NCBI RefSeq assembly: GCF_988242995.1 | Contig: NZ_OZ547043.1 | Reading direction: 5' to 3' (one strand) | Length of the DNA stretch: 64,000 nt | Part shown: in pieces, positions 30,799 to 51,432 of the stretch | How the letters are laid out: the number at the start of each line of letters is the position of its first letter | Numbering within the stretch: the stretch's first letter is position 1 | Notes under the pieces: generated by a model | What the model was told of the DNA's origin: nothing | What the model saw: the letters and a program-made list of their open reading frames with translations, nothing else | Database searches by the model: none | Made by a program: the position numbers and the translations under genes

Positions 30799-30874
30799 TT
30801 AACCATTCCCATACAATTAGTTAACCAAAAAGGGGGGATTTTATCTCCCCTTTAATTTTTCCTCTATTCTCGGC

Positions 30875-30902
30875 GTTGAATGTGGGGGAAACATCCCCAT
30901 AT
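30875..30902 (+). promoter_or_regulatory. Sigma-32 (heat-shock) type promoter upstream of lon
   Basis: gttgaa (-35-like, cf. CTTGAA) - 14 nt - ccccatat (-10, cf. CCCCATNT), about 85 nt upstream of the lon ATG. Confidence 0.6.
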
Positions 30903-30985
30903 ACTGACGTACATGTTAATAGATGGCGTGAAGCACAGTCGTGTCATCTGATTACCTGGCGGAAATTAAACTAAGAGAGAGCTCT

Positions 30986-33881: not shown

Positions 33882-34595
33882 GTGCACAGAAAACCCCCAG
33901 CTAGGCTGGGGGTTCCGGAAAGCTTTCAGCTTTGAGCCAGTTATTAAAACCCCTTTTGATTTGTTAAAACACCTTGCGGTCTGGCAACTGCAAGTGTCAA
34001 ACAAGAAATCAAAAGGGGGTCCCAATGGGGAACGAAAAGAGCTTAGCGCACACCCGATGGAACTGTAAATATCACATAGTTTTTGCGCCAAAATACCGAA
34101 GACAGGTGTTCTACAGAGAGAAGCGTAGAGCAATAGGCAGTATTTTGAGAAAGCTGTGTGAGTGGAAAAGCGTACGGATTCTGGAAGCTGAATGCTGTGC
34201 AGATCATATCCATATGCTTGTGGAGATCCCGCCCAAAATGAGCGTATCCGGGTTTATGGGATATCTGAAAGGGAAAAGCAGTCTGATGCTTTACGAGCAG
34301 TTTGGTGATTTGAAATTCAAATACAGGAACAGGGAGTTCTGGTGCAGAGGGTACTACGTCGATACAGTGGGTAAGAACACGGCGAAGATACAGGATTACA
34401 TAAAGCACCAGCTTGAAGAGGATAAAATGGGAGAGCAGTTATCGATTCCCTATCCGGGCAGCCCGTTTACGGGCCGTAAGTAACGAAGTTGGATGCAAAT
34501 GTCAGATCGTGTGCGCCTGTTAGGGCGCGGCTGGTAAGAGAGCCTTATAGGCGCATTTGAAAAACCTCCGGCTATGCCGGAGGATATTTATTTAT
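33882..34595 (+). mobile_element. IS200-like insertion sequence (IS200/IS605 family), ~0.71 kb; ends approximate (+/- ~20 bp)
   Basis: Single Y1/HUH transposase gene flanked by subterminal perfect hairpins (left cccccagc-tag-gctggggg at 33894-33912; right cctccggc-tat-gccggagg at 34565-34583); the hupB-ppiD spacer is ~0.9 kb here, much longer than I recall for K-12. Confidence 0.85.
34025..34483 (+). CDS. tnpA: IS200 transposase TnpA (Y1 HUH-type)
   Basis: ORF 33974-34483; start at MGNEKSLAHTRWNCKYHIVFAPKYRR (152 aa); HUH motif (ADHIHMLVEIPP) and C-terminal catalytic-Tyr region (GYYVDTVG). Confidence 0.9.
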   Translation: MGNEKSLAHTRWNCKYHIVFAPKYRRQVFYREKRRAIGSILRKLCEWKSVRILEAECCADHIHMLVEIPPKMSVSGFMGYLKGKSSLMLYEQFGDLKFKYRNREFWCRGYYVDTVGKNTAKIQDYIKHQLEEDKMGEQLSIPYPGSPFTGRK

Positions 34596-48187: not shown

Positions 48188-48760
48188 ATGAAACTCGTGC
48201 ACATGGCCAGTGGTTTAGCGGTTGCGATTGCGTTGGCGGCTTGCGCAGATAAAAGCGCGGATATTCAGACGCCAGCACCGGCGGCAAATACGTCTATTTC
48301 AGCAACACAACAACCTGCTATCCAGCAACCGAATGTCTCCGGTACCGTCTGGATCCGTCAGAAAGTCGCACTGCCGCCTGATGCTGTGCTGACCGTGACA
48401 CTTTCTGACGCGTCGTTAGCCGATGCACCGTCAAAAGTGCTGGCGCAGAAAGCGGTGCGTACCGAAGGTAAACAGTCACCATTCAGCTTTGTTCTGCCAT
48501 TTAACCCGGCAGATGTTCAGCCGAATGCGCGTATTCTGTTGAGTGCGGCGATTACCGTGAATGACAAACTGGTATTTATTACCGATACCGTTCAGCCGGT
48601 GATCAACCAGGGCGGAACTAAAGCCGACCTGACATTGGTGCCGGTGCAGCAAACCGCCGTGCCGGTTCAGGCCAGCGGTGGCGCAACGACTACCGTACCT
48701 TCGACTTCACCAACTCAGGTGAATCCGTCTTCGGCAGTTCCAGCTCCTACGCAATATTAA
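48188..48760 (+). CDS. ybaY: Lipoprotein YbaY
   Basis: 190-aa ORF with lipobox (LAACA). Confidence 0.9.
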   Translation: MKLVHMASGLAVAIALAACADKSADIQTPAPAANTSISATQQPAIQQPNVSGTVWIRQKVALPPDAVLTVTLSDASLADAPSKVLAQKAVRTEGKQSPFSFVLPFNPADVQPNARILLSAAITVNDKLVFITDTVQPVINQGGTKADLTLVPVQQTAVPVQASGGATTTVPSTSPTQVNPSSAVPAPTQY

Positions 48761-48768
48761 GCGCAGTT

Positions 48769-48792
48769 AACCCTCTCCGCCCGGAGAGGGTT
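48769..48792. terminator. Bidirectional hairpin between convergent ybaY and atl
   Basis: aaccctctc-cgcccg-gagagggtt, overlapping the atl stop codon. Confidence 0.55.
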
Positions 48793-49180
48793 AGTAGTTC
48801 CAGCGATAACGCTGCAAGTCGATTTGCCCGCTTCCCGATACCATCACACCTTCTGCCAGTAATGCCTGTCGTTGACGCTGTAAATCCGGTCCGGTTAGCG
48901 AAATTGTGCCGTGGCGATTAACCACCCGGTGCCAGGGTAAGGTGCTGCCTTCGGGGAGACGCTTTAACACACCGCCCACCTGGCGCGCGGCGCGGGGCGA
49001 TCCTGCCAGTTTCGCCACATCACCGTAAGTGGTGACATAGCCTTCGGGAATAGCGGCGACGATTTGCCAGACGCGTTGGGGAAATGAATCTTCTTTTTCC
49101 ATCTTTTCTTCCTGAGGTAATTTTTCAGCATAATCTGGAAAAACGCCCGAGTGAAGCCGCATTGCGCAAGAAACCAGCAT
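48791..49180 (-). CDS. atl: DNA base-flipping alkyltransferase-like protein Atl (YbaZ)
   Basis: ORF 48791-49201; MGMT-like DNA-binding domain without the active-site Cys context; start taken at MLVSCAMRLHSG (129 aa). Confidence 0.85.
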   Translation of the reverse strand: MLVSCAMRLHSGVFPDYAEKLPQEEKMEKEDSFPQRVWQIVAAIPEGYVTTYGDVAKLAGSPRAARQVGGVLKRLPEGSTLPWHRVVNRHGTISLTGPDLQRQRQALLAEGVMVSGSGQIDLQRYRWNY

Positions 49181-49256
49181 CCGGCACGCAATGGGTTGCA
49201 ATTAGCCGGGGCAGCAGTGATAATGCGCCTGCGCGTTGGTTCTCAACGCTCTCAAT

Positions 49257-49370
49257 GGGGGCTCTGTTGGTTCTCCCGCAACGCTACTCTGTTTACCAGG
49301 TCAGGTCCGGAAGGAAGCAGCCAAGGCAGATGACGCGTGTGCCGGGATGTAGCTGGCAGGGCCCCCACCC
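49257..49370 (+). ncRNA. ffs: 4.5S RNA (signal recognition particle RNA)
   Basis: 114-nt sequence GGGGGCTCTGTTGGTTCTCCCGCAACGC...GGCAGGGCCCCCACCC matches the E. coli 4.5S RNA as I recall it, including the conserved SRP domain IV loop region (GGAAGCAGCCAAGGCAGA); located between atl and ybaA as in K-12. Confidence 0.95.
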
Positions 49371-49480
49371 ATTTCTGCCTCCCCCCGTTTCGTCAAAAAA
49401 TCCCAATATGGCTAAACTTTAACCACAACTGACGTCGCAAGAATTGTCTGGCTGCGCAGTACGCTTCGGAGGTATGTCTG

Positions 49481-49834
49481 ATGAAGTATATTGATGGTTT
49501 TGTGGTTGCCGTTCCTGTCGATAAAAAGGATGCCTATCGGGAAATGGCTGCTAAGGCTGCGCCATTGTTTAAAGAGTTTGGCGCGCTTCGTATTGTCGAA
49601 TGCTGGGCCAGCGATGTACCGGATGGCAAAGTGACCGATTTTCGTATGGCGGTAAAAGCTGAAGAGAATGAAGAGGTTGTCTTTAGCTGGATTGAATACC
49701 CTTCAAAAGAGGTCCGCGACGCTGCTAATCAAAAGATGATGTCGGACCCACGGATGAAAGAGTTCGGCGAGTCCATGCCGTTTGATGGTAAGCGAATGAT
49801 CTATGGCGGATTCGAGTCAATCATCGACGAATAG
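49481..49834 (+). CDS. ybaA: DUF1428-family protein YbaA
   Basis: 117-aa ORF (MKYIDGFVVAVPVDKKDAYREMAAKAAPLFKEFGALRIVECWASD...). Confidence 0.9.
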   Translation: MKYIDGFVVAVPVDKKDAYREMAAKAAPLFKEFGALRIVECWASDVPDGKVTDFRMAVKAEENEEVVFSWIEYPSKEVRDAANQKMMSDPRMKEFGESMPFDGKRMIYGGFESIIDE

Positions 49835-49875
49835 GTAGCGTGACGGGCTGTGCGGCGTGCCGTCAGCCCTACAAT

Positions 49876-51432
49876 TCACAAATGTTGCTCGGCCCAGCGT
49901 AAGAAATCTTCTTTCGGTAATGCCTTGCTGTAGAGCCAGCCCTGACCGTAGTGCACGCCATGCTGGCGTAACCACTCTTCTTGTTTACTGGTTTCGATTC
50001 CCTCCGCTACCATTTTCAGTTTCAGTGTTTTTGCCATTTCGATGATATGCGGCGTGACATTTTTATATTCCAGCGCATCAACGAAAGATTTATCGATCTT
50101 CAGAATGTCGACATCCAGATCCTGTAAATAACTTAAACTTGAATACCCCGTACCAAAATCATCAAGATAAATTTCATGGCCCGCCTCCCGGTAGCGAGAA
50201 ATTATCGGGGCGCTGGTTTTCGGATCGGCAAACTCGCGTTCAGTGAGTTCAAGCGCGATCTGTCTGGGATTAACCTGATAGTGATTGATCATTTCACGCA
50301 GCAATTGCGGGATTTTTTCCGAGGTGAGCACGGTGGATTCAAGATTGATCGAAATATGCTGCTGCGGATGCTGACGCAGCCAGTCGCCCATATCTTCAAA
50401 GACGCTTCTTATAATCAGTAGCGTCAATGGCTCAGAAAGGCCCGTTTGCTGTGCCAGCGGAATAAAACTATCTGGTGACAACCAACTACCGTCTGTCTGC
50501 GGCCAGCGCGCCAGTGCCTCAGCACCGACAATTTTGCCATTGGCTAAGGAGACAATCGGCTGATAGTGCACGCAAATATCACGATTTTCGATAGCATCCT
50601 GCAGCCGATGATGCGGTGACTGGATACGGCGCAAAATACGCAGCACAAACATCGCTGCCAGCAGGCCAATCACCAACCCGAGCGGTAACCAAATAAAGAC
50701 TTGCCGATGCCAGCCTTTCTGCAACATTTTCGTTGAAGCCCAGGTGATGATCGAAATATTCATTTCCGGGAAGGGCAGGATATCGTAAATGATTCCATTA
50801 TTTTCGATATGCTCACCGGGTGTTTTTTGTAGTCTGGTAATAATTCCCTGAGCAATTTCATCGCTGCTGGTTATCACAACGTTATGGGCATTGCCAATAA
50901 TGGCGGCATCAATTTGCCATGAGCTATAGGGAATGACATCAATAAAGGAAGCGGGGTCGATCATGACGACATAATGTGCCGTTCCCATGGCAACCATGTA
51001 ACGGATAATGCCTAAATCGTTATGCGATGTTAACCAGACACGATAACCATCTTTCGAAATTTTACCTGGCTCGGGGAAGGTATCGGGCGGGCTTTCATGC
51101 TCCAGAGACGAACACTGGGGAACGTTGTTATCGATATAAACCACTTCCTGAATATAGCGATAACTGTAAGATACCCGACGCATTTCCATGAGATGGGCTT
51201 CGCTACAGGCAGCGCCTTGCCATCTTTCCAGCTCTTGCAGCGCATCTTTCCCTTGTGTCGCCACCTTATTGGCCCGAATAGCGACGCGGGAGGAATACGT
51301 ATTCAGCTCTTCAATAAATGATGTTTCTACCTGCTGATGGGCCAGCCAGATGCTTAAGCCGACAGGCAGCAATACTGAAAGAATCAGTACTCCCGAAATA
51401 AGGCCGACCAAATGTCGTGTTCTCACCACCAT
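49876..51432 (-). CDS. pdeB: Cyclic-di-GMP phosphodiesterase PdeB (YlaB), CSS-motif sensor plus EAL domain
   Basis: 518-codon ORF; N-terminal TM segment, periplasmic CSS domain, C-terminal EAL domain (…EALARW… DDFGTGYSSL). Confidence 0.88.
   Translation of the reverse strand: MVVRTRHLVGLISGVLILSVLLPVGLSIWLAHQQVETSFIEELNTYSSRVAIRANKVATQGKDALQELERWQGAACSEAHLMEMRRVSYSYRYIQEVVYIDNNVPQCSSLEHESPPDTFPEPGKISKDGYRVWLTSHNDLGIIRYMVAMGTAHYVVMIDPASFIDVIPYSSWQIDAAIIGNAHNVVITSSDEIAQGIITRLQKTPGEHIENNGIIYDILPFPEMNISIITWASTKMLQKGWHRQVFIWLPLGLVIGLLAAMFVLRILRRIQSPHHRLQDAIENRDICVHYQPIVSLANGKIVGAEALARWPQTDGSWLSPDSFIPLAQQTGLSEPLTLLIIRSVFEDMGDWLRQHPQQHISINLESTVLTSEKIPQLLREMINHYQVNPRQIALELTEREFADPKTSAPIISRYREAGHEIYLDDFGTGYSSLSYLQDLDVDILKIDKSFVDALEYKNVTPHIIEMAKTLKLKMVAEGIETSKQEEWLRQHGVHYGQGWLYSKALPKEDFLRWAEQHL

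Follow-up and report, generated by a model that had tools for sequence, protein, structure and literature searches.

The intergenic region between ybaZ (atl) and ybaA was examined in a window of 64,000 nt, the whole stretch of DNA that was analysed. A 114-nt sequence on the plus strand of this spacer, starting with GGGGGCTCTGTTGGTTCTCCCGCAACGC at position 49257 and ending with GGCAGGGCCCCCACCC at position 49370, was recognized as ffs, the gene for 4.5S RNA, and was overlapped by two open reading frames (ORFs) of 112 and 60 aa. The original prediction, made from the sequence alone, had given both ends of this 114-nt RNA, had placed it in the atl-ybaA spacer and had noted the two ORFs lying across it. 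The sequence, the neighbouring genes and the two ORFs were all present as described. The features of the locus are as follows.

48791-49180, minus strand: ybaZ/atl with the K-12 start; the listed ORF runs from a TTG and covers 48791-49201 (ORF list and K-12 table)
49084-49422, plus strand: 112-aa ORF with an ATG start, apparently a chance open frame (mechanical ORF list)
49151-49333, plus strand: 60-aa ORF with a GTG start, apparently a chance open frame (mechanical ORF list)
49196-49224, plus strand: sigma-70-type promoter-like site, with -35 TTGCAA (49196-49201), a 17-nt spacer and -10 GATAAT (49219-49224) (promoter scan)
49233-49256, plus strand: predicted 5' leader of the precursor, about 24 nt, its start placed from the position of the promoter (the -10 ends at 49224)
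49257-49370, plus strand: ffs, mature 4.5S RNA (bacterial small SRP RNA), 114 nt (identity to K-12 b0455, Rfam and fold)
49265-49361, plus strand: match to RF00169 (Bacteria_small_SRP), model positions 1-97 of 97, not truncated
49299-49321, plus strand: domain IV core, GGUCAGGUCCGGAAGGAAGCAGC, a conserved 23-mer with GGAA inside it
49309-49312, plus strand: GGAA tetraloop (GNRA), which caps helix 8 and is closed by UCC/GGA in the MFE fold
49481-49834, plus strand: ybaA (ORF list and K-12 table)

The identity of the RNA gene was examined by sequence comparison and with covariance models, the two checks proposed in the original prediction. All 114 positions were shared with the ffs gene of K-12 MG1655 (b0455; NC_000913.3, 476448-476561), which is annotated as 'signal recognition particle 4.5S RNA', and this 100% identity was accompanied in a Megablast search with the ffs sequence by an E value of 5e-52, far beyond chance. 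The covariance-model search, in which the lack of an SRP RNA match would have told against the prediction, detected RF00169 at 49265-49361 with an E value of 5.5e-13 and a score of 68.1 bits, where the gathering score is 40 (Rfam 15, gathering thresholds). A permissive Rfam rescan of 48700-49900 at E ≤ 1 detected no family other than RF00169, which was preferred to weaker matches that overlapped it and belonged to its own clan.

The setting of the gene was the same as in K-12. The gene order ybaZ(atl)-ffs-ybaA was common to the window and K-12, as were the spacings of 77 nt between ybaZ and ffs (start to start) and 111 nt between ffs and ybaA. Four substitutions relative to K-12 were detected in 300 nt of intergenic DNA around ffs, none of them inside ffs. 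On a larger scale, the region from 27097 to 51309 was collinear with positions 455000-478500 of K-12 MG1655 (tig ... pdeB) at 98.2-98.8% identity, an IS200C insertion excepted, and this level of identity indicated that the window derives from a lineage of E. coli distinct from K-12. In a survey of complete E. coli genomes with Megablast, exactly one copy of ffs was found in 5424 of 5426, with an identity of at least 99% in 5420, and the eight listed RefSeq matches were annotated as 'ffs: signal recognition particle sRNA small type'. The remaining two genomes had no ffs match, and two of the 5424 matches lay on records labelled as plasmids. As ffs is regarded as essential, these missing and plasmid-labelled genes may be assembly or labelling artefacts.

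A scan of 48950-49550 for promoter-like sites detected one, TTGCAA-17-GATAAT, compared to an average of 0.4 in shuffled sequences, and a G+C-rich GCGCC was located directly 3' of the -10 hexamer. Alignment with the window indicated that TTGC and ATAATG were invariant in E. albertii, Citrobacter werkmanii, Enterobacter sp. and Providencia vermicola, and the promoter hexamers and the G+C-rich stretch after the -10 were conserved in five Enterobacterales. The leader folded into a small hairpin (GCGUUGG...CAACGC), and leader and hairpin were conserved in E. albertii, Citrobacter and Enterobacter and had diverged in Providencia. The UCAAU just 5' of G+1 was conserved in all four of these relatives. 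Similarity among the Enterobacterales collapsed a few nucleotides past the mature 3' end. The terminator scan detected no classical hairpin-plus-T-run terminator 3' of ffs, where the 4.5S hairpin is followed by ACCCAUUUCU. One candidate terminator at 49248-49262 was rejected, as it spans the leader and the 5' end of ffs and as a single find against a shuffle average of 1.0 is the level expected by chance.

The leader of the 4.5S precursor, which we take from older literature to be about 24 nt long, fits a start of transcription near 49231-49233. Judging by the conserved promoter and the literature, transcription from the site at 49196-49224 would give an ffs precursor carrying this leader, which RNase P would remove, and the 3' end would probably be trimmed by exonucleases. 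Processing of the 4.5S precursor by RNase P has been described, and an unprocessed, 5'-extended 4.5S RNA supports viability (PMC7049720). The arrangement also touches on ybaZ. If the K-12 start of ybaZ (49180) is taken, the -35 hexamer of ffs starts 16 nt past the first ybaZ codon, and the promoter of ybaZ, which is on the other strand, must therefore be sought inside the ffs promoter and gene or past them. A later in-frame Met is present in ybaZ, at MEKEDSF.

The fold of the 114-nt RNA was examined next to its sequence. The MFE structure was a single hairpin of 42 pairs with a GGAA cap (-57 kcal/mol; z = -3.15), only 2 of 200 shuffles folded as well, and the MFE and centroid structures agreed on one hairpin. 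The 5' and 3' halves thus form the single extended hairpin (helices 5 and 8) by which a small SRP RNA is recognized. The domain IV core was used as a pattern, GGTCAGGNCCGGAAGGNAGCAGC, a 23-mer with two free positions, and was scanned in one genome per species. This 23-mer was present in at least 120 contigs from Proteobacteria, Actinomycetota, Bacillota, Cyanobacteria, Planctomycetota and a DPANN archaeon. Its two free positions form a pair and co-varied, with UA in 89 sequences, GC in 7, CG in 5, AU in 4 and no pair in 3; all four Watson-Crick types were therefore found at this pair, which lies beside the tetraloop, among 108 sequences.

Conservation of the whole structure was examined across phyla. 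For this, 108 distinct segments of 114 nt were aligned with MAFFT, and the E. coli structure was projected onto the alignment. Pairing was possible in 64.5% of cells, compared to 35-49% when the 3' partners were slid by one to three columns, and none of 500 shuffles reached the observed value. The covariation score was 0.284, against 0.157 in shuffled alignments (0 of 500 reaching it) and 0.14-0.21 in slid ones, figures to be read with the shuffles ignoring relatedness and the structure deriving from one row of the alignment. For helix 1, the outer stem, 58% of cells paired in this alignment, where the stem is misplaced by indels between phyla. RNAalifold recovered only 11 pairs around the tetraloop and added a pair below the GGU/GCC stem (CG in 39, UA in 33, GC in 26 and AU in 6). 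Because indels between phyla misalign the outer stem, its absence from the RNAalifold result is a limit of the alignment and is not evidence against the stem.

As the outer stem was blurred in the cross-phylum alignment, clean pair counts were obtained from a small gammaproteobacterial subset whose rows align to E. coli without gaps. The orthologues from three Pseudomonas, Stutzerimonas, Aliidiomarina, Vibrio and one further gammaproteobacterium had 66-76% identity to E. coli and kept 37-41 of the 42 pairs, and each of them carried 6-12 compensatory double changes. The Providencia orthologue, at 89% identity, kept 40 of 42 pairs.

The relation of the two overlapping ORFs to this RNA could be read in more than one way. 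One or both could be real protein genes, overlapping the RNA gene or taking its place, since both frames are open from a start codon (ATG and GTG, respectively), and the 112-aa frame was also open in Citrobacter and Enterobacter, although with different ends (117 and 119 aa). Openness of this frame within the Enterobacteriaceae is explained by the near-invariance of the ffs sequence itself. Neither translation had a Pfam match at E ≤ 1, and no CDS was annotated at the ORF positions, either in the K-12 table or in RefSeq at the eight matches listed. In E. albertii, the 112-aa frame was cut to 59 aa though ffs was identical, and in Providencia, Photorhabdus and Vibrio this frame contained stop codons inside ffs. 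The 60-aa frame fared no better in Citrobacter and Enterobacter, where it stopped 12 nt before ffs and had no start codon thereafter. Furthermore, RNA pairing was kept by compensatory changes where the frame breaks, which is the opposite of a coding pattern. Protein-coding genes at these positions are, on this evidence, extremely unlikely. A related proposal would keep the RNA and add a small protein to it. The first 97 nt of the 112-aa ORF are antisense to the start of ybaZ/atl, and a longer transcript, itself antisense to ybaZ, could occasionally serve as the message for this frame, which would make this a dual-function locus producing a stable RNA and a small protein. The frame is indeed open through ffs in E. 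coli, Citrobacter and Enterobacter, but its truncation in E. albertii, its disruption in the three more distant genera and the lack of a family match make this proposal very improbable. As sequence change at the locus preserves RNA pairing and not reading frames, the 112-aa and 60-aa ORFs are, as far as their sequences tell, chance frames, by-products of a G+C-rich, stop-poor sequence that would encode nothing. Their description as spurious in the original prediction was borne out by the lack of conservation in relatives as well as by the Pfam result.

Two further explanations concern the RNA itself. An older proposal is that 4.5S RNA acts in translation elongation with EF-G. That its main role should be this action with EF-G on the ribosome, and not SRP targeting, is hardly credible, as the whole RNA has been placed in the complex of SRP, FtsY, ribosome and translocon (PMC5454536, PMC6059433); in any case, the EF-G question leaves the identity of the gene unchanged. 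The locus could alternatively be a decayed or extra copy of ffs, with the functional gene elsewhere in the genome. Against such a pseudogene, ffs occupied exactly one place in every matching genome (lowest, median and highest number of places all 1), and the copy in the window has the canonical position between ybaZ and ybaA, an intact conserved promoter and no substitution relative to K-12. The single-copy count and the 100% identity refute this explanation, which is the least probable of those weighed here. Overall, the RF00169 match, the identity to K-12 at 114 of 114 positions, the single copy and the hairpin with its compensatory changes indicated that 49257-49370 on the plus strand is ffs, the single-copy gene for the 4.5S RNA subunit of SRP, with a probability of about 99%. 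The central call of the original prediction is therefore upheld. This copy of ffs is an ordinary one that is already known, and nothing about the gene is new.

The significance of the gene lies in its product, as 4.5S RNA is the RNA subunit of SRP and is needed for co-translational targeting of inner-membrane proteins. The mechanism of SRP is taken from the literature and is carried over to this locus by sequence identity to the K-12 RNA. SRP consists of Ffh and 4.5S RNA, and FtsY docks first at the tetraloop (PMC5454536, PMC6059433), the role of the GGAA tetraloop being taken from PMC5454536. Both the tetraloop and a distal site of the RNA have been tied to GTPase control (PMC5454536, PMC6059433). 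Going by this literature, the mature RNA would form one long hairpin, with the M domain of Ffh bound at the conserved loops that domain IV has near the GGAA tetraloop, and the core at 49299-49321 is the likely M-domain binding region. The tetraloop would speed docking of FtsY onto ribosome-bound SRP, after which the Ffh-FtsY GTPase dimer would move to the distal end of the hairpin. There, an RNA base would enter the active site and trigger GTP hydrolysis, and hydrolysis would release the nascent membrane protein to SecYEG. Of the genes for the protein partners, neither ffh nor ftsY is present at 27097-51309, the part of the window that was aligned to K-12. The 4.5S RNA has also been proposed as an antibiotic target (PMC6059433).

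One side remark of the original prediction did not hold, in which ffs was named as the sole RNA gene of the window. The K-12 RefSeq table does list no other RNA for the stretch compared, and no tRNA or tmRNA genes were found in all 64,000 nt, but Rfam at the gathering threshold also detected sraA and STnc490. These matches and the element associated with the second are as follows.

30819-30914, minus strand: sraA (Rfam, 106.7 bits against a gathering score of 56)
33882-34586: IS200C insertion of 705 bp in the hupB-ppiD spacer, absent from K-12 (RefSeq annotation in other genomes)
33892-34015, plus strand: STnc490 (Rfam, 146.4 bits against a gathering score of 56)
within 33974-34483, plus strand: tnpA reading frame of the IS200C element

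The sraA match is located between clpX and lon, in the clpX-lon spacer, with both of these genes on the other strand, and the K-12 RefSeq feature table does not list it. The STnc490 match corresponds to the left end of IS200 and the tnpA 5'UTR. RefSeq genomes annotate an IS200/IS605-family tnpA under 33882-34586, and 869 genomes covered at least 80% of this stretch used as a query, at up to 36 places per genome. STnc490 has been renamed art200 and is described as an sRNA antisense to the tnpA 5'UTR (PMC4513863); the real art200 sRNA would for this reason come from the minus strand, though the STnc490 match was reported on the plus strand.

The finding itself matters only for quality control, as it illustrates how tracks built on ORFs alone draw false genes over an RNA gene that is well known and essential. 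Such false genes are removed when covariance models are run. Compared with known systems, the closest counterpart is ffs of E. coli K-12 (b0455; Rfam clan CL00003), in which the gene is the same in all 114 nt and nothing differs. The 4.5S RNAs of other Gammaproteobacteria (Pseudomonas, Vibrio, Aliidiomarina, Stutzerimonas and Providencia) have the same length, hairpin, domain IV core and GGAA and align without gaps, and they differ from that of E. coli in having 66-89% identity and stems changed by compensation. The large SRP RNAs, namely the Bacillus-type scRNA and the archaeal and eukaryotic 7S RNA of the same Rfam clan, have the domain IV core in common with it, and the 23-mer was present in contigs of Bacillus, Paenibacillus and the DPANN archaeon. 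These large RNAs are about 270-300 nt long and carry an extra Alu domain and further helices, whereas the E. coli 4.5S RNA is a minimal single hairpin.
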